64,000 nucleotides of DNA from a bacterium (GCA_963663405.2 CAXXSM010000042.1:8008-72007); one strand, 5' to 3'; shown: positions 6,916-21,357, numbered from the stretch's first letter. Notes: generated by a model not told the origin, from the sequence alone. Numbers and translations are program-made.

Positions 6916-7536
6916 TTAGTCTGAATAATCGCTCGCTCGTAAAATATCCCCCGAGCTCAGTAGACCGTTTGAAGAGCTATATCTCATATAACGGAACGTA
7001 ATCGAGTATCCATCCACCGAAAAACCTCCAGGCAAATCCCATTTCACTTTGTTTGCCCCTGGATATTCAAAAACGGGGTTGGAATCGTCAGAAAAACTAG
7101 GGCCGGCGCTGGCGACAAGCCATCGTGTCGCTTGACCATTCGCATTACCGCCCCGGTCCCATTCCGGTCCCCAATCCGGTTCGGTTCCGAAAGTGTAATG
7201 ACTCTGTGTGCTCCCCCAGTCATCCGCCACAGCCATGGGATTCGTGTAAAATGGATCTCGTGGCAACGATCCGATGTAGGCGGTGGGGTGCGTCAGGCGG
7301 TACAATCCCGCATGCAGGGGCACATCTGAATCGTGGTGATTCTCCGTATACGTGTTCCAATCCAGACGGTACATTTCCTGGGCCTGCCCCATTGCCTGCA
7401 TGTCTGATTTCACTTTCGCGACTTTGGCGCGGGTTTGCGCGTTGAGAAAGTTGGGCACGGCGATTGCGGCAAGAATCCCGATGATAGCGACTACAATCAA
7501 CAATTCGATAAGCGTAAAACCTTTCGATCTCATCAT
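6916..7536 (-). CDS. Prepilin-type N-terminal cleavage/methylation domain protein (GspG-like)
   Basis: KGFTLIELLIVVAIIGILAAIAVPNF class III signal, LPRDPF, WLVASAGP, YSSSNGLLSSGDI; SD GGAG upstream. Confidence 0.92.
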   Translation of the reverse strand: MMRSKGFTLIELLIVVAIIGILAAIAVPNFLNAQTRAKVAKVKSDMQAMGQAQEMYRLDWNTYTENHHDSDVPLHAGLYRLTHPTAYIGSLPRDPFYTNPMAVADDWGSTQSHYTFGTEPDWGPEWDRGGNANGQATRWLVASAGPSFSDDSNPVFEYPGANKVKWDLPGGFSVDGYSITFRYMRYSSSNGLLSSGDILRASDYSD

Positions 7537-7724: not shown

Positions 7725-10502
7725 TTATTCCTGCGCGGGGACTTGGATGAGAATATTCTCTTGTCCGGGCAGAATACCTGCCATCTCGACAACGGGTTGA
7801 GATTTATTCTGAAACATCCCCGTCCCTTTGGCGTAGACTTTGATTGTATGTTCGACACCAGGCCGCAGCCCAACGAACCAGAACTGTCCGTCTTGATTAC
7901 TGTGATCAAGTCCGGAGGATTTATCGGCTGCGCTGGCGGTCGCCCAGACTTCCAAGCCGGAGAGCGGCTTGCCTTCCTTATCGATGACGCGGCCTTTCAA
8001 AAAACTGGCTCTTGTCAGTTCAATATCAAAATTCAGAATTTTCTGATCTTCAGGCATCTCTAACTCATAAAACTCAGCGCAGTAATCCTGTCCTTTTGTC
8101 GTATCTGACGAATACATCCCAGGCGAGACCTGCAGTTGGATTTTTCCTGGTTTAAGCCATTCAATCTTGTATGTACCATCTTCATTGACGGTACCGCTTG
8201 TTGAATTTTGATCCTGTTGAACGAATAGCGAGAGCATCGCAGGGAGATTCCCGTCATCGGTAGTGATTTTACCGGTTAATGTATGGCCGGTGTCCGCGCT
8301 TTTTAATTGAATGTGGATATCTTGTACGTTCTCACCAGGGCTGTATCGCACCGTTGTGTTCCCCTTCGCGGCAATGTCTTTCCCAAATAAGGATGGGCCT
8401 TTTAGGCCTCCACTCATTGTTGTTCCACCTGCCATTCCCATGCCGTAGGAGCCCATTCCGCCGGGTAGCGGCTTCTTAGGGCGCAAAACAATCGCTGTTA
8501 ACAGTTCTTCAACCGGTTCTTCTTGGGCGGCGGTGATAATGGAGAAGCCGAACTGTCCGTTTTCATCCGTGATATTGGATTCTACATAGCCATAATGACC
8601 TTCGCCGAGAATTACTTCCGCTCCTGCCGCTGGGAAGCCATCCGAATTGATAACAGTACCGGAAAAGAATGTGCTAACGCCCGGTACAACGGGGAATTCG
8701 ATATGATTCAGATCCTGATCCGTGACTTTTATCTCAACACATCGGCCATATTTGAACGTGTCATTCACCACTTTCCCTTTGGGATGGACGAAACCGGTGT
8801 ACGTATCAAGTGTCAATATCGGATCGATCGAGTATTCGCCTGGGATTACCTTTTCAAATTGAAAACTGCCATCGACGGCGGATTGAACGGTCCCGTAATC
8901 TCCATATTCCCCAAAGGAACGACTATTACGGAATAAGTTGAGATGAAATCCTGGAACCGGCTCTCTTGTATCGGTTCTGATTACACGGCCGGAGATTGTA
9001 TACGCTTCGTCGACATCATATTCGACATCAATCAAGTGTTTCTGGTCTTCCAATGTAAATGTGAGTGTTTTTGTGGGGAAACCACTTTCCGCTGGTGGAG
9101 TGACCTGTAATTTATATTGCCCAAACGGTGTATTCTTGAAAGAGGCTCTTCCTTCTTCATCAGTTTCGCCCATAAATAGGGCGTTTTTTCCATCGGTGGA
9201 TTTCAATGTCAGATCGACGTTTGGAATCGCGGCGAGCTGACGTATATTGATGCCGGATTTTTTTACGGTGACATGGACAACGCCATTTTCAAAAAGAAGC
9301 AGATTCGCGCCGCCACACGCAGGATGAATGACGGTGACAGGACTTTGAAGATTGCCCACCCTTGCTTGTATGTAATATGTTCCGGCTGGAAGGTTCTCGA
9401 AACGGCAAAGACCAGCCGCGTCCGTTGTTTTCGTGGCGATGATCTCACCTCGAGAAGAGTAATTGGATTTTCGTAACATATAGTAGAAGCGTTTCCCATT
9501 CCTATCGAATTCAATCCTGGATTCGTATAGATTGGATGGCGCTTCCAGCTTCTCCCGCGCGGTCAATTCATCCCAGATACGAAGCCGGCGCGAGTTTTGC
9601 ACATTTTCAGGCGCGCGGCTGCTATTATTTTCCGCGAGTGGTTGATCGTTAGGCTTAATCATGCAATCCCACAGACCCGCGACATGATCGCCCGTTTTCG
9701 GTGGACCATAGGTGGAATCATTTGGTAGAATTGATTGCGTGAATTCTGATTGGCTGACGAGTATGTCATTCTCTTCAGGTTGGAACGTTACTTTTTTCTT
9801 TCCTTCGAGAATTCCATCCAATTGGAGCGTCACGCTATTGGAAACAGGCCGTTTGACGGATGGGCCTTTCCAGAGGATAAATTCTATCACTTCCCCACCA
9901 GGATTTTTTTCTTCCCACTTAGAACCGGGCGCTTGTACCTTACATTCAAATGTACAGAGATATTCCATCGTGATTTCGATGGCTCCATCAGCGGGGATCG
10001 TGACGGTTTGTTCCACTTCGTCATAACCGTCCGCCTTCGCTTTGAGGGTATAATCCCCAGCAGACAGACCGGATATATTCGCTTCTCCATTGGAGAATTC
10101 AATACTTTTCTCTCCAATCGTAAGGTTTCCCTCTGAGATGGGATCTCCCAGCGCGTCGACGATGGAAAACGCGCAGGAATAACTCTCCTGATTGGCCATA
10201 GCGATCGGCGCGGTTGTTGGCTGCGCCGGAACGGGTGTGTTGTCTGCCTCCGGAGCGTTGGATTGTGTCTGTTTGGCAGTTTTCATAGCGATATTGGATT
10301 CGTTAACCGACGCTTGATCCCCAGCCGTAATCAATTCACTGCGTGAACCGTCTGCGGATGTAACACGGACAGATCCCTCATCCACATTCACAATTAATTC
10401 TTCCGGAACGCCGGGAGGCGCGCCGTCGTTTCCTAAATACATCGACGCCAAGACGGAAATAGCCGTCAGGCAGAGAATGGTGACAACAATTTTTATACGC
10501 AT
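7725..10502 (-). CDS. Large exported/membrane-anchored protein: N-terminal FecR-like strands plus multiple carboxypeptidase-regulatory-like (prealbumin/CnaB-type) domains
   Basis: N-terminal hydrophobic segment; IVNVDEGSVRV...LITAGDQ; repeated TD..G...F..L..G.Y and G.V....G.P motifs; own SD (AAGGA). Confidence 0.8.
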   Translation of the reverse strand: MRIKIVVTILCLTAISVLASMYLGNDGAPPGVPEELIVNVDEGSVRVTSADGSRSELITAGDQASVNESNIAMKTAKQTQSNAPEADNTPVPAQPTTAPIAMANQESYSCAFSIVDALGDPISEGNLTIGEKSIEFSNGEANISGLSAGDYTLKAKADGYDEVEQTVTIPADGAIEITMEYLCTFECKVQAPGSKWEEKNPGGEVIEFILWKGPSVKRPVSNSVTLQLDGILEGKKKVTFQPEENDILVSQSEFTQSILPNDSTYGPPKTGDHVAGLWDCMIKPNDQPLAENNSSRAPENVQNSRRLRIWDELTAREKLEAPSNLYESRIEFDRNGKRFYYMLRKSNYSSRGEIIATKTTDAAGLCRFENLPAGTYYIQARVGNLQSPVTVIHPACGGANLLLFENGVVHVTVKKSGINIRQLAAIPNVDLTLKSTDGKNALFMGETDEEGRASFKNTPFGQYKLQVTPPAESGFPTKTLTFTLEDQKHLIDVEYDVDEAYTISGRVIRTDTREPVPGFHLNLFRNSRSFGEYGDYGTVQSAVDGSFQFEKVIPGEYSIDPILTLDTYTGFVHPKGKVVNDTFKYGRCVEIKVTDQDLNHIEFPVVPGVSTFFSGTVINSDGFPAAGAEVILGEGHYGYVESNITDENGQFGFSIITAAQEEPVEELLTAIVLRPKKPLPGGMGSYGMGMAGGTTMSGGLKGPSLFGKDIAAKGNTTVRYSPGENVQDIHIQLKSADTGHTLTGKITTDDGNLPAMLSLFVQQDQNSTSGTVNEDGTYKIEWLKPGKIQLQVSPGMYSSDTTKGQDYCAEFYELEMPEDQKILNFDIELTRASFLKGRVIDKEGKPLSGLEVWATASAADKSSGLDHSNQDGQFWFVGLRPGVEHTIKVYAKGTGMFQNKSQPVVEMAGILPGQENILIQVPAQE

Positions 10503-10533
10503 GATTATTTCCTTTTCTTTTTAATAGAACTGA

Positions 10534-11211
10534 CTATGGATTCGATCGCCGGACGGTCACATGAAAGACCGTTCCGGTGACGTCGATTTGTCCCAGCGGC
10601 GTTTTGACTGATAGGGTGGAGTCCTGGATGGACGCCGCCTGGACGGCGATAGATCCGGATCGGAGATCAATACAACGATCTTGCCCAAACCGAACCGAGA
10701 GTTGGGTCTCCGGAGAACAACTTATAATCGAGCCGTCAGAAAGACACATGTCCGCCGATACCTCGTCAGGCACGGTTACGAAACGGCCTCGCTGAAGGCG
10801 GTATTCCCATAACATGGCGGGAGAGATTTCTTTCCCCGATTCATTCGCTTGGAACGATAAGCGTTCAATGGGTGGAACTTCGGGAAAGAGTGTGTTCGTA
10901 TAGGTCTGGTAAATCCCCATCCCGCCGGCGTATAAGAGAAGAAAACAGATCGCGCCGAATACAGGCGCCGGCAGCCAATCCATCGCGTAATTGATGGTGT
11001 AAAACCAGTTCTTGCGTGGATTCAATTGCGCGTTGAATCGCTCTTTTATCCGCCGCATGTTGACTGGAGGCACACGGAGCGATTGCAGCCCGCGCTGGAT
11101 GTGACGGCACTCTTCGAACGCGCTTTCTTCCCCGCCGCTACCAGGTGTGGCGCCTTGGCCGAATTTCCTGGCCCCGTTCCGCTTTTCTCGATCTGAAAAC
11201 GTATCGTTCAT
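10534..11211 (-). CDS. FecR-type anti-sigma factor, FecR domain C-terminally short
   Basis: Cytoplasmic N-terminus, one TM helix, then LSDGSII...RCIDLRSG...VKTPLGQIDVTGTVFHV; ATGA overlap with the sigma gene. Confidence 0.85.
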   Translation of the reverse strand: MNDTFSDREKRNGARKFGQGATPGSGGEESAFEECRHIQRGLQSLRVPPVNMRRIKERFNAQLNPRKNWFYTINYAMDWLPAPVFGAICFLLLYAGGMGIYQTYTNTLFPEVPPIERLSFQANESGKEISPAMLWEYRLQRGRFVTVPDEVSADMCLSDGSIISCSPETQLSVRFGQDRCIDLRSGSIAVQAASIQDSTLSVKTPLGQIDVTGTVFHVTVRRSNP

Positions 11212-11777
11212 GATTGATCCAATAAATAAGGTACGAGTAGTATTCGCATTTTTTTCCGCGCCCGGTATAAGTGCGTTTTGACGCAGTCTGTCGATAGATT
11301 GAGCGCGGCGGCGATCACCTGATGGGATTCACCGTTCAATTCACTTAACACGAGAATCGTTCGCTGCGCGTCTGATAATTTGGCTAATGATTCTTCGAAG
11401 GCGGTTTGGAATCGGTCTTCATCAAGCGCGCGATCCGGGGAATGGAAGGTCCTCATGTGGCTGTGGCGCTGGATTTCAGTGTCATCGATCGAACGGAAAT
11501 CGACTCGTTTACGCAATTGATCGATACATAAATTACGAGCTGTCTGCATAAGAAATCCCTTGATGGAGCCGTTCGATTTCCGGAACCGTCCTTTTTTAAC
11601 GGTTTGAATCAGCCTTAATAGAACTTCCTGAAATGTATCCTCAGCCTCCTGCCGGTCCCACAAGAGCCCGTAACACAACCGCAGCACGTCGTCCGCATAC
11701 CAAGCGGTTATGTCGTCGAAACAAGCTGGATCGCCCTGGAGCATCCGTTTGATTAAACCGGTGGGACCGTCTTTCAT
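11208..11777 (-). CDS. ECF sigma-70 family RNA polymerase sigma factor
   Basis: EAEDTFQEV and ARNLCIDQLRK (region 2); LSDAQR...IAAALNLSTDCVKTHLYRAR (region 4). ATG 11777 has the better SD spacing; GTG 11786 is an alternative start. Confidence 0.95.
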   Translation of the reverse strand: MKDGPTGLIKRMLQGDPACFDDITAWYADDVLRLCYGLLWDRQEAEDTFQEVLLRLIQTVKKGRFRKSNGSIKGFLMQTARNLCIDQLRKRVDFRSIDDTEIQRHSHMRTFHSPDRALDEDRFQTAFEESLAKLSDAQRTILVLSELNGESHQVIAAALNLSTDCVKTHLYRARKKMRILLVPYLLDQS

Positions 11778-11801
11778 CGAGTTCACCTTTCGTTATTTCT
11801 A

Positions 11802-11827
11802 TACGTGATTTCAACGTTGAGGTGACA
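11802..11827 (-). promoter_or_regulatory. Putative ECF-type (autoregulatory) promoter
   Basis: Minus strand TGTCAC-N16-CGTA about 25 nt upstream of the sigma start, resembling ECF -35/-10 layouts. Confidence 0.45.
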
Positions 11828-19255: not shown

Positions 19256-20269
19256 ATGTTAAAAAACATAGACTATACCATCTACTTATTGCTAATGCTC
19301 TCAATTGATACTCATGCGCAAACCATTAAGCAACCAACATTGGTTCAAACTCTTCCCGTACCGGAATACCTAGAATTTGATTCTATTAACCAACACTATG
19401 GTATTTACTTTCTTAAAGTTCAGGATGAGAATAGTATAGAATTAACAAGTATTATTTCTGAAATCCTATTATATATTCCATTGACATTTTATTATTTTAG
19501 TTTTATAGCTTATATTGAGGAAACTTGGGATATGAATCAACAAGAATATGCAGAAATATTATATCGTGGCGGACGTATACCTGTAAGCAGCATCGTTCAC
19601 GACGCAAGTTCTGTTACACTCAACGGAAAGCAAATAATATTAGAAGACAGTTATTTACCATTTATCGTTGTCAATGAAGGAGGGTATGGATTCTCTCTCC
19701 AATCCGTCGAATTATCTCCTTCACAAAAATATGTCGGAGGGATAATTATGTATTGTGATGATTATTTGTATGGTACAATATTGTCATTATGGGATGCAAA
19801 TACAGGTGATACAATCTATAGAGAATATCCAACGGAACCGTTTCTTTACCGGAGTGATTTCAATTGGATTTATAATTTTAATTTCTTACCTGAAGTAATC
19901 GATTTACACTTCACTCCAGATGAAAAATATTTGATAACACGAGAATTTTGGGAGTTTCACCGTGGCGGTAATACGCCAGTAGCAAGAGCAAGAATGCTTG
20001 ATTTAAAGAAATGGGAGTTTATAACTGTTGACCGGGTCGTCGCCTTCAGTTCCGACATGCGTTACATGGTAACTGAACGCGATGGATTGCCTTCGCTGGT
20101 GGAACTCGAATCCGATACAATCATTCACCAATACCAAGTTGAATACGCCATGACCGCCTGCTGCCTCTCCCCTGATGATAGCCAAGTCTATATCACCACT
20201 ATCATAAACGAACTCCACATCTTCGATAGCGGCCTGCAATCAACAGCGCCGTGCTGGGAGGTGTATTGA
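19256..20269 (+). CDS. Secreted WD40-like/beta-propeller protein, paralog 2 of 3
   Basis: Signal peptide (THA-Q), LSPS..YV, LWDANTG, FTPDEKYL, AFSSDMRY; ends SGLQSTAPCWEVY. Confidence 0.8.
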   Translation: MLKNIDYTIYLLLMLSIDTHAQTIKQPTLVQTLPVPEYLEFDSINQHYGIYFLKVQDENSIELTSIISEILLYIPLTFYYFSFIAYIEETWDMNQQEYAEILYRGGRIPVSSIVHDASSVTLNGKQIILEDSYLPFIVVNEGGYGFSLQSVELSPSQKYVGGIIMYCDDYLYGTILSLWDANTGDTIYREYPTEPFLYRSDFNWIYNFNFLPEVIDLHFTPDEKYLITREFWEFHRGGNTPVARARMLDLKKWEFITVDRVVAFSSDMRYMVTERDGLPSLVELESDTIIHQYQVEYAMTACCLSPDDSQVYITTIINELHIFDSGLQSTAPCWEVY

Positions 20270-20334
20270 ACGAACATACAATCCATTCAGGGCGTAAATA
20301 TGCGCCCTGGATTGTTGTCAGCAAGGAAAAAATT

Positions 20335-21357
20335 ATGTTTAAATCCATAAGTATTGCATCTATATTATTGGTATTTCTTTCTATTGCTATCCATGCGCAA
20401 ATTGTTAAGCAACCGAGTATGATTCAAACTCTGCCAACTCCGGAATTCCCCGATCCCGATCCATTCAACGATCTGATTTCAGCATTTTTCATCCAATCCA
20501 CCAACAACAATTTGATCCAACTTCATTATTTTCGAATGTGGGTGGAGCCCGATATACCAGGTATACCATTTGGAACTATCGATCTGCTTCATTACAGAGT
20601 AGCTACATGGAATATGGAAACAGAAGAAGTAATTGATTTTAGCGAAGGCGATAGAGATAAATTTTTTGAAGAGAATAGCATCGAACATAATGGTAATTCC
20701 GTTGTCATTGATGAGCGTCAGCTCGTTTTGGAAGACTCGCAGACAACATATTTTTACAACACTGACGAGTATTTGGAATATCATTTAGACAAGGCATATC
20801 TATCTCCAAATGAGCAGCGGATCGGTGGATTAGTTCTTTATTCAATTGCTTCTCCAGAAGATCTTGAAAATGAATGGTTCATAATGGCTCTTTGGGATTC
20901 AATTACGGGAAAAACGTTATATCGTGAAATTCCTTCTTCTCCCGGCTACGTCCCCAGTGATGGTCCGAGATTAAGTATTCATCCTCTCTCACTGGAATTA
21001 AATTTTTCTCCTGACGGTCGATTTTATTTTTTCCGTCAAGGCTTTTTCGAAAATCCTTGGGGTATCCTTCCTAGTTTAAAACTCCTCGACACGAAAACCC
21101 TGACCCTATGGGAGGCTGACCGCGACGTCGCCTTCAGTTCCGACATGCGCTACCTAGTAACCGAGCGAGAAGGATTACCTTCGCTGGTGGATATCGAATC
21201 CAATACCATCATTCACCAATATCAAGTCGAATCCCCCATGTCCGCCTGCTGCTTCTCCCAAGACGACAGTCAGGTCTACATCGCCACTGCTTTAAACAAA
21301 CTCTACATCTTCGAAAGCGGCCTGCAATCATCAGCGCCGTGCTGGGAGGTGTATTGA
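20335..21357 (+). CDS. Secreted WD40-like/beta-propeller protein, paralog 3 of 3
   Basis: ATG 20335 after AAGGA; MFKSISIASILLVFLSIAIHAQ; LWDSITGK, FSPDGRF; ends SGLQSSAPCWEVY. Confidence 0.8.
   Translation: MFKSISIASILLVFLSIAIHAQIVKQPSMIQTLPTPEFPDPDPFNDLISAFFIQSTNNNLIQLHYFRMWVEPDIPGIPFGTIDLLHYRVATWNMETEEVIDFSEGDRDKFFEENSIEHNGNSVVIDERQLVLEDSQTTYFYNTDEYLEYHLDKAYLSPNEQRIGGLVLYSIASPEDLENEWFIMALWDSITGKTLYREIPSSPGYVPSDGPRLSIHPLSLELNFSPDGRFYFFRQGFFENPWGILPSLKLLDTKTLTLWEADRDVAFSSDMRYLVTEREGLPSLVDIESNTIIHQYQVESPMSACCFSQDDSQVYIATALNKLYIFESGLQSSAPCWEVY

Follow-up and report, generated by a model that had tools for sequence, protein, structure and literature searches.

FecR of E. coli is reported to cleave itself; its C-terminal fragment then remains attached and keeps later cleavage in check until it is pulled away (PMC12036975). 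The working form is described as one FecR domain in two pieces held together non-covalently (PMC12036975, PMC8144685), of which the N-terminal one has the membrane span and the region that binds sigma, and the C-terminal one shields it from the next cleavage (PMC12036975). FoxR of Pseudomonas is reported to cleave at Gly191-Thr192, and the juxtamembrane fold of PupR (6OVK) is described as two seven-stranded sheets forming a twisted, beta-solenoid-like structure (PMC7186176). In other systems, signalling by Clostridium thermocellum RsgI is reported to need autoproteolysis in the periplasmic domain of the anti-sigma (PMC10328401), and E. coli RseB is described as a separately encoded periplasmic protein shielding RseA from site-1 cleavage (PMC12036975). 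RsgI and RseA-RseB differ in fold and family from the module described here, and RseB binds RseA as a complete protein instead of filling a gap in the domain of RseA itself. A naturally split FecR was not found in the literature searched.

The locus studied here, part of a 64,000-nucleotide stretch of bacterial DNA (the window), departs from the single-polypeptide form of FecR regulators by dividing the sensor over two genes that have their own stop, start and anchor. An earlier note on this DNA had read an ECF sigma, an anti-sigma and a 925-residue protein as one three-gene layout, and we found the three open reading frames where it had placed them, all on the minus strand (Table 1). It was also right that the large gene lies in another frame with its own Shine-Dalgarno-like stretch, ATG and hydrophobic anchor; the gene starts 31 nt past the anti-sigma stop, at offset 1. 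Its tail peptide, IVNVDEGSVRVTSADGSRSELITAGDQASV, is indeed part of the large protein (residues 37-66, positions 10305-10394), preceded by the Shine-Dalgarno-like AAGGAAA, the ATG and some 22 hydrophobic residues, but it begins at 10394 and not near 10406, which corresponds to residue 33.

Table 1. Features of the split FecR locus and its surroundings, in positions of the window.
Feature	Position	Strand	Remarks
Candidate ECF-type promoter	11800..11827	minus	TGTCAC, 16-nt spacer, CGTATA; ends some 14 nt before the sigma gene begins
ECF sigma gene	11208..11786	minus	192 aa; Pfam and NCBIfam
Anti-sigma gene	10534..11211	minus	225 aa; ORF call; start overlaps sigma stop by 4 nt
Putative membrane span, anti-sigma residues 79-101	10909..10977	minus	WLPAPVFGAICFLLLYAGGMGIY; hydrophobic stretch read from the translation
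FecR (PF04773) match, anti-sigma residues 150-219	10555..10764	minus	profile positions 8-81 of 97, E 1.7e-8
Gly213-Thr214 codons	10570..10575	minus	GGA ACG; position of the FecR/FoxR self-cleavage motif
Intergenic spacer	10503..10533	minus	31 nt; AAGGAAA precedes the ATG of the large gene
Large-protein gene	7725..10502	minus	925 aa; anchor, FecR tail, low-complexity linker, CarboxypepD_reg beta-sandwich chain
N-terminal hydrophobic stretch, large-protein residues 3-24	10431..10496	minus	after Met-Arg; signal anchor or signal peptide
FecR tail, large-protein residues 33-77	10272..10406	minus	strands absent from the anti-sigma; hhalign
Extracytoplasmic transthyretin-like/CarboxypepD_reg chain	7725..10190	minus	Pfam PF13620; upper boundary approximate
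Prepilin-type (N_methyl) gene	6916..7536	minus	Pfam N_methyl E 2.3e-9; neighbour 188 nt downstream

The 192-residue sigma carries sigma-70 regions 2 and 4 only, as ECF (group 4) factors do (Sigma70_r2 at residues 30-94, E 1.8e-13; Sigma70_r4_2 at residues 129-180, E 4.8e-13; NCBIfam sigma70-ECF TIGR02937, 85 bits against a cut-off of 42.9). Its four closest paralogues are the sigmas of the four other split loci of this genome (E 1.5e-59 to 1.7e-36), and the best paralogue outside split loci reaches E 2.6e-14. A motif pair of the form GT[CAT]A[CT]-N16-19-GTAT[AT] occurs in the 90 nt preceding the sigma gene at 11 of the 27 family loci and at 2 of 27 in the roughly 210 nt further upstream. A related promoter pattern was not enriched genome-wide (18 matches vs 36-40 in shuffles), and it is solely on the phylogenetic footprint that we call the upstream element a candidate promoter.

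The anti-sigma, one of five paralogues in the genome, consists of a putatively cytoplasmic N-terminal part, one putative membrane span and about the first two thirds of a FecR domain, and ends in ...IDVTGTVFHVTVRRSNP directly before its stop codon. No Pfam or NCBIfam model recognises an anti-sigma domain in its first 78 residues, and no twin-arginine pair was seen in the translation directly before the membrane span. The final 16 positions of the PF04773 profile are absent from its match. When a 26-row family alignment was compared by hhalign with 12 conventional FecR proteins, anti-sigma residues 107-225 fell on template columns 114-232 (E 1.2e-20). For the large protein, a 26-row alignment likewise compared with conventional FecR placed residues 33-77 on columns 229-271 (probability 90%, E 1.5e-6). 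The earlier note had expected hmmscan with PF04773 to give complementary partial matches on both proteins; this failed for the large protein, whose first 100 residues have no match at E <= 10. Its FecR tail is visible only by profile-profile comparison and by way of the fused homologue described below.

Beyond the tail, the large protein is dominated by tandem transthyretin-like beta-sandwich domains of the CarboxypepD_reg type (PF13620 in seven stretches, E 3.8e-45, 152.6 bits against a cut-off of 32.3), a chain with further matches to SpaA, CarbopepD_reg_2 and SdrD_B. This CarboxypepD_reg make-up recurs in the four paralogues and in the fused homologue. No C-terminal sorting domain scores above the Pfam cut-off in the large protein, and Pfam matches STN or FecR_C in neither chain. 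FoxR and PupR share the juxtamembrane fold modelled here, but in PupR an STN subdomain follows, which binds the receptor's signalling domain, whereas the large protein continues into a low-complexity linker and the CarboxypepD_reg repeats.

Several lines of evidence give good support to the proposal of the earlier note that one FecR fold is made from two chains: the complementary profile-profile matches, the full-length Pfam match in fused relatives, a model that gives these relatives the solved FecR fold, conservation of the split across one order, and a predicted interface that passes its controls. Only the two chains taken together cover a complete FecR (CJM) beta-solenoid. The complex prediction that the note had called for, of the anti-sigma with the N-terminal part of the large protein, gave an ipSAE of 0.62 (runs 0.61-0.63) against 0.00 for the best of three controls. 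Of 80 solved complexes 58 reach the mark used, as do 2 of 110 mismatched pairs; these counts hold only roughly because we used our own alignments for the complex prediction. The runs have at least 96% of contacts in common, with a partner pLDDT of at least 72. They pair anti-sigma strand 215-220 with residues 36-41 of the partner and anti-sigma residues 207-210 with 45-48, and the predicted contacts to the anti-sigma involve large-protein residues 26-50, 58 and 66-68. This pass may be memory, because both halves come from a fold that was solved as one chain. The sequence comparisons strongly support homology of the two pieces to complementary parts of one FecR domain, and the anti-sigma's sensor fold probably obtains its missing third from the large membrane-anchored protein.

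Two family members join the halves in nature. P0024 (contig 17 of genome G020) and P0012 are 1361-residue proteins encoded in one open reading frame; like the split loci they have a sigma neighbour, the anti-sigma N-terminus, a FecR domain and the CarboxypepD_reg chain, but they differ in having one membrane span and an uninterrupted FecR domain, which in P0024 matches Pfam FecR at profile positions 5-96 of 97. An AlphaFold2 model of the fused domain (pLDDT 80.9, pTM 0.74) has 14 strands, with the break point of the split proteins in loop 102-106 and five strands after it. At E <= 0.001, Foldseek returned only four matches for this model, namely the two chains of 4M0H, 4M0N and PupR 6OVK (TM 0.66-0.67); the alignment to 6OVK_R covers 129 columns at an rmsd of 2.1 (TM 0.66). 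The best PDB match is BDI_1681, a putative anti-sigma factor of Parabacteroides distasonis (4M0N, 4M0H; profile E 1.5e-16, Foldseek E 3.5e-8), a single chain holding the strands that here sit on the second protein. We take BDI_1681 to be of the Bacteroidota type that pairs with SusC-like transducers. In our tree the fused form is nested in the split clade (support 92/85), but a tree grouping all split forms was not rejected (AU p 0.347), so the fused form could be ancestral or re-fused.

The split itself is common in this family and recurs far too often to be a coincidence. Five of the 15 FecR loci of this genome stop and restart in the same way, their FecR matches ending at profile position 81-86 before a large gene with the same N-terminus, and the split recurs at 21 loci of 16 other genomes. 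The search of related genomes that the earlier note had proposed gave 23 split loci out of 30, with one fused and six conventional. A phylum search returned 37 strong matches in 18 of 35 genomes, 36 of them open frames of 191-299 residues and one of 1420. Among 72 representatives drawn from a 1.84-billion-protein library at E <= 1e-30, 70 are 120-241 residues long. The other two are the 1361-residue fused forms; the note had named one fused frame at homologous loci as grounds for giving up its reading, and with this arrangement confined to two of 72 the split stands. These two representatives speak for homology of the halves and not against the split. Throughout the family the end of the anti-sigma falls in one and the same loop, at a median of 9 residues past the Gly (range 8-41). 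The junction around it varies: the stop codons are TAA (11), TAG (8) and TGA (7), the frame offsets between the two genes divide 13/7/6, and the gaps from anti-sigma to large gene range from -71 to +511 nt, with a 4-nt overlap in two loci. An independent public run contains a variant about 98% identical across the junction, in which TT is inserted at 10517, positions 10523 and 10528 are substituted, and the stop and start codons are unchanged; because this insertion adds 2 nt to the spacer, the two genes are not locked in one frame. All three stops, all offsets, the spacer indel and the separate start and anchor agree with the earlier statement that this is no simple frameshift. The evidence shows or strongly supports that the split, conserved across one order, is real and old.

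Nothing at the locus points to the usual receptor. In agreement with the earlier note, no TonB-dependent receptor was found across the window's contig. A profile search of the whole genome gave three PF00593 matches, on contigs C18, C106 and C53, all of them away from the contigs that carry the five split loci; the sole STN match near a split locus is below the cut-off (C60, 22.3 bits vs 28.4). The input signal does not come through a neighbouring TonB-dependent receptor. The receptor-independent cell-surface or mechanical sensing that the note proposed would be a candidate role for the module. The prepilin-type gene downstream is a neighbour of the module and only putatively a member of its operon; an N_methyl gene lies within 3.5 kb at 8 of the 15 FecR loci of this genome, against a density of 128 such ORFs in 8.44 Mb.

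We favour, with a probability of about 0.65, a three-gene ECF sigma system in which the FecR-type sensor is divided over two genes and a dissociable large protein protects the anti-sigma. The anti-sigma would bind the sigma through its cytoplasmic part, cross the membrane once and supply strands one to nine or so of a 14-strand FecR beta-solenoid, ending one strand past the conserved Gly-Thr. The large protein would insert in the membrane independently and present the remaining five or so strands (residues ~33-77) just outside it, before running on as a long beta-sandwich chain. The two pieces may join in the periplasm, the large protein extending the solenoid by further rungs. Once docked, the large protein would stand in for the C-terminal fragment that E. 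coli FecR makes by self-cleavage, and would shield the anti-sigma stub from site-1 and RseP-type proteolysis. Once pulled off, unfolded or degraded, it would expose the stub to a cleavage cascade that frees the sigma, which could then re-induce its own operon. The genome has the machinery for such cleavage, with one M50/RseP-type gene and seven S41 protease matches.

By analogy, the pair would be a gene-encoded equivalent of self-cleaved E. coli FecR, with which it shares the Gly-Thr and a FecR fold complete only when both chains are present. Unlike the E. coli fragments, the two pieces are separate genes, broken one strand after the Gly-Thr instead of at the motif itself; the second chain carries a putative membrane anchor of its own and takes no Tat ride with the first; and there is neither an STN-type C-terminal domain nor a nearby TonB-dependent partner. 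Self-cleavage of the split chains may persist, and the real picture may be more complex, because the Gly-Thr is still invariant: G213, T214 and F216 are present in 26 of 26 family anti-sigmas.

The same fold could also be a constitutive complex, with the large protein as a permanent co-subunit or the module reporting its partner's own supply or assembly, such that too little partner would turn the sigma on and no outside signal would be sensed by dissociation. The docking evidence, both profile matches and complex prediction, fits this equally well. The large gene sits directly behind the anti-sigma in the same operon, and the 4-nt overlap in two loci would suit 1:1 co-production; moreover, Pfam finds only repeated beta-sandwich domains in the C-terminal part of the large protein, and neither a ligand-binding nor a receptor-contact domain was recognised. 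We nevertheless think it unlikely, as the bound C-terminal fragment of the one studied relative is described as a releasable lock (PMC12036975), and the five modules of this genome, whose large proteins have diverged and range from 857 to 1238 residues, look more like five inputs than a single housekeeping complex.

It is less probable still, and in our view quite improbable, that there is no assembly at all, the truncated FecR working or idling alone and the motif in the large protein being a functionless leftover of an old fission. The silence of Pfam on FecR in the large protein's N-terminus would suit such a relic, as would the low overall identity of the partners' N-terminal segments to the window's copy (13-29%). 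Yet despite that identity the motif is kept in all 26 aligned partners, where it always lies at the same distance from an anchor that begins M-R (or M-Q, M-N) and runs for about 22 hydrophobic residues; V40, G43 and G61 never vary, and M1 and V45 hardly do. The constant loop at which the anti-sigma ends and a predicted interface whose controls score 0.00 also argue for assembly, and two thirds of a PupR-type CJM subdomain are unlikely to be stable alone, because the PupR CJM is reported to degrade rapidly when purified by itself (PMC7186176). An assembly or sequencing error, frameshift, nonsense mutation or programmed recoding of one fused gene, for which the two fused representatives might speak, is refuted for practical purposes by the conservation of the split (five loci here, 21 loci of 16 other genomes), the varied stops, frames and spacers, the 2-nt spacer indel of the independent run, and a second gene with its own start and Shine-Dalgarno-like stretch, whose anchor would sit in the middle of a read-through product.

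A wider reading can be offered tentatively, and we consider it doubtful at present: lineage-specific, "pre-split" FecR modules may serve as TonB-independent envelope fuses, fired by force or damage and built from mutually specific pairs. The invariant Gly-Thr would then either mark a further cut inside the chain, so that the lock has three pieces, or, as a relic, point to residues that the fold requires. Anchored in the inner membrane and long enough to reach across the periplasm, a giant protein would plug an unfinished solenoid with its first five strands, and force on, or damage to, its stalk would unplug the solenoid and fire the sigma. Up to five such mutually specific pairs would operate side by side in one cell.

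Our analyses indicate that the FecR domain of this signaling module is divided between two adjacent genes. The three ORFs of the module run head to tail on the minus strand, and the earlier note had described the layout correctly, including the large gene's own Shine-Dalgarno-like element, its different reading frame (offset 1 from that of the anti-sigma) and its hydrophobic start. Residues 79-101 of the anti-sigma are hydrophobic as read off the translation, and its Pfam FecR match (PF04773, E 1.7e-8) takes residues 150-219 to profile positions 8-81 of 97. The chain ends in TGTVFHVTVRRSNP, 12 residues past the Gly of the Gly-Thr motif. The large protein begins with Met-Arg, about 22 hydrophobic residues and a short linker that leads into ...PEELIVNVDEGSVRVTSADGSRSELITAGDQASV...; the FecR-tail peptide that the note had placed in this gene does lie there, at 10394-10305, its first coordinate having been slightly off. 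Next come a low-complexity, Pro-, Thr-, Ala- and Gln-rich linker and then the CarboxypepD_reg matches. Pfam searches found no STN or FecR_C domain on either chain and, as the note had held, no TonB-dependent receptor close to the split module.

Features of the split FecR module in the window
Feature	Position	Strand	Description
ECF sigma, 192 aa	11208-11786	-	ORF; Sigma70_r2 and Sigma70_r4_2 (Pfam); above the TIGR02937 cut-off (NCBIfam)
Anti-sigma, 225 aa	10534-11211	-	ORF; 4-nt overlap of its start with the sigma stop
Large protein, 925 aa	7725-10502	-	ORF; seven CarboxypepD_reg matches (Pfam)
Spacer between anti-sigma and large gene, 31 nt		-	contains AAGGAAA
Candidate promoter	11800-11827		TGTCAC, 16-nt spacer, CGTATA; precedes the sigma gene

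The note had expected complementary partial PF04773 hits on the two proteins. The anti-sigma gave its half, but in the large protein's N-terminal 100 residues neither Pfam (E <= 10) nor NCBIfam recognized a FecR match. Profile-profile comparison with 12 conventional FecR proteins from the window's and related genomes nevertheless located the missing strands in the next gene. Twenty-six anti-sigmas aligned with template columns 114-232 (E 1.2e-20), and residues 33-77 of their 26 partners, the large proteins encoded directly behind them, aligned with columns 229-271 (probability 90%, E 1.5e-6); these ranges adjoin and share four columns. Fused members of the family (P0024 and P0012, 1361 aa) are continuous across the break (...LGTVFDVDVSSTPPTTAKINVKAGKVLLIKGDESKTLAAGRRAVVD...), lack the second hydrophobic stretch, and carry a Pfam FecR match to profile positions 5-96 of 97. 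In an AlphaFold2 model of the fused FecR domain (14 strands, pLDDT 80.9, pTM 0.74), Gly-Thr occupies residues 93-94, the break of the split genes maps to the loop at 102-106, and five strands lie beyond it. Foldseek with this model returned only BDI_1681 (4M0H chains A and B, 4M0N) and PupR (6OVK) at E <= 0.001, with TM scores of 0.66-0.67 over 127-129 columns. The juxtamembrane subdomain of PupR is reported to form a twisted beta-solenoid-like assembly of two seven-stranded sheets (PMC7186176); together with the five strands past the break, this implies that the large protein holds about a third of the fold, and no marginal tail.

The two chains are also predicted to bind one another, as the note had proposed. 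With anti-sigma residues 105-225, partner residues 25-80 and a 26-row alignment for each chain, the predicted complex reached an ipSAE of 0.62 (runs 0.61-0.63), against 0.00 for the best of three controls. In calibration, 58 of 80 solved complexes attained the ipSAE mark, as did 2 of 110 mismatched pairs; these counts hold only roughly here because our own alignments were used. The runs share at least 96% of contacts, with a partner pLDDT of at least 72. The lowest-error predicted contacts join partner residues 36-41 to anti-sigma residues 215-220, and 45-48 to 207-210; this is what the addition of the next solenoid rung would look like. The two chains are halves of a fold whose structure is known from a single polypeptide, so the high score may reflect the predictor's memorization of that fold, and the model supports binding of the two chains rather than showing it.

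E. coli FecR undergoes self-cleavage at Gly-Thr; its C-terminal fragment remains attached to the N-terminal one and blocks further cleavage. Upon binding of ferric citrate, TonB and FecA pull this fragment off, and the sigma-activating piece is then set free by a cut at site 1 and the subsequent action of RseP (PMC12036975). The split module would be the gene-encoded counterpart of this self-cleaved state, with the large protein as a releasable lock and the 225-aa anti-sigma as the substrate of the proteolytic cascade. It is possible that the chain of beta-sandwich domains binds something, bears force, or serves as a protease target. Proteases of the needed kinds are encoded in the window's genome (one M50/RseP-type gene and seven S41 matches). 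In contrast to E. coli FecR, the module is broken one strand past Gly-Thr, it lacks an STN or FecR_C domain as well as a nearby TonB-dependent receptor, and the second chain carries an anchor of its own, which makes joint export with the first chain unnecessary. Gly-Thr-x-Phe is still invariant among the split anti-sigma chains. The main alternative is that the two chains form a constitutive complex, or that the module senses the supply of the large protein itself; all of the docking evidence fits this as well, and we regard it as possible at rather long odds.

That the halves are instead leftovers that do not assemble is improbable in view of the conservation. All 26 partner sequences keep V40, G43 and G61 at an overall identity of only 13-29%; this pattern, which is independent of the complex model, would be hard to explain without a role.

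The division into two genes is itself conserved. The window's genome (8.44 Mb in 170 contigs, 82% complete) has 15 FecR matches, ten of which reach profile position 96-97 within one ORF; the other five break off at position 81-86, and all five of these short anti-sigmas end soon past G-T-x-F. At each of the five loci the next gene encodes a product of 857-1238 aa with a common N-terminal plan, and their sigmas are mutual closest paralogues, as are their anti-sigmas. The same three-gene split, which the note had suggested looking for in related genomes, is indeed present there. A search of 35 genomes of the phylum gave 37 strong matches (E <= 6.5e-26) in 18 genomes, all 18 of the window's order, and none in nine genomes of other families. 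Thirty-six of the matched open frames are 191-299 aa long and one is 1420 aa. Among 30 fetched loci, 23 are split with a recognizable partner gene, one is fused, and six are ordinary FecR proteins of 283-319 aa with weak matches. Among 1.84 billion representative proteins, a profile search yielded 72 at E <= 1e-30: 70 of 120-241 aa, in which the match extends to the C-terminus, and two of 1361 aa. A locus search with the sigma alignment returned mostly unrelated ECF sigmas, its only useful loci being L046 (split; sigma 57% identical) and L047 (38%), and a word-based protein search found one relative only.

An artefactual split is excluded. Over 26 loci the anti-sigma stops with TAA (11), TAG (8) or TGA (7), the partner frame is offset by 1 in 13, by 2 in 7 and by 0 in 6, and gaps lie between -71 and +511 nt (median 30; two partner starts were placed approximately). 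The median distance from the Gly to the chain end is 9 residues. An independent public run, from a different study, contains a strain variant, about 98% identical, that spans the junction: its spacer has a TT insertion at 10517 and two substitutions, and the stop and start codons are unchanged. Two other runs, X4 and X5, yielded no sequence over the junction. The variant carries 13 substitutions over 10126-10946 and 4 further on, 17 in total over 10126-11300. Varied stops, frames and gaps, together with this variant, therefore rule out that the split stems from sequencing error, a pseudogene or recoding; frameshift, read-through and assembly error are rejected as causes of the split, in keeping with the note's view that it is not a simple frameshift.

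Some junctions are unusual. At L006 / L127 (contig C144 of the window's genome) the anti-sigma ORF continues for 41 residues beyond the Gly, with a 71-nt overlap into the start of the large gene; the extra tail is unconserved, and the stop codon has apparently drifted. Long spacers occur at L007 / L128 (contig C140, 283 nt) and L025 (511 nt). Separately, three near-identical conventional sigma/FecR/prepilin loci of the same genome (L008 on C110, L014 on C86, L010 on C4) have the FecR gene whole in one (251 aa) and as two ORFs elsewhere (108+160 aa; 145+106 aa); the two-ORF genes are recent frameshifts or assembly errors.

In an anti-sigma tree of 40 rows, none dropped and each trimmed about 10 residues past Gly-Thr, the fused form nests among 24 split forms in one clade (support 92/85), and a second split clade (L031-L033) lies outside the clade that holds it. 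Because a single clade of all split forms is not rejected (AU p 0.347), the fused form may be either ancestral or re-fused.

At 11 of 27 loci a promoter-like pair similar to that of the window is found no more than 90 nt from the sigma start, against 2 of 27 with one further upstream. Genome-wide the motif is unenriched (18 hits versus 36-40 in shuffles), and no regulon emerged from it.

Prepilin-type (N_methyl) genes adjoin FecR/ECF loci in the window (6916-7536, minus strand) and at L002, L003, L005, L008, L010, L012 and L014. Such a gene lies within 3.5 kb of 8 of the 15 FecR loci of the window's genome, where its 128 N_methyl ORFs in 8.44 Mb would give about 1.6 by chance; FecR/ECF sigma modules may control pseudopilin-like genes. 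A further observation concerns C-termini: 221 of the genome's 4067 ORFs of at least 250 aa end in W-x-[ILVM] plus 1-3 residues (shuffled-tail control, 45), mostly as ...[VS]x[DN]WxL[YHF] at the extreme C-terminus with a signal-peptide-like start. This ending may be a lineage-specific C-terminal sorting tag. Two window genes (19256-20269 and 20251-21357, both plus strand) carry it, each ending ...APCWEVY, and further tagged genes flank conventional FecR loci; the large proteins of the split loci lack it.

Full-text literature searches brought up no account of a FecR-type regulator that is split in nature. The FecR passages of the ECF re-classification paper (PMC7826278) mention none, and its per-group supplements could bear on the matter. 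The authors of the FecR cascade study contrast self-cleavage with 'encoding them at separate loci', and the active E. coli regulator they describe is a complex of two self-cleavage fragments (PMC12036975); a natural family with one gene per fragment is therefore instructive. Read as a gene-encoded counterpart of self-cleaved FecR, the split family shows that the two-piece state is the selected one and that separately exported chains can build up the fold. It provides a setting in which the contributions of Gly-Thr chemistry and of chain separation could be told apart. It also offers ready-made, probably orthogonal docking pairs, five of them in the window's genome. Moreover, it ties FecR-type signaling to large beta-sandwich proteins in the usual place of a TonB-dependent receptor, which widens what this very common class of anti-sigma may sense in little-studied phyla.
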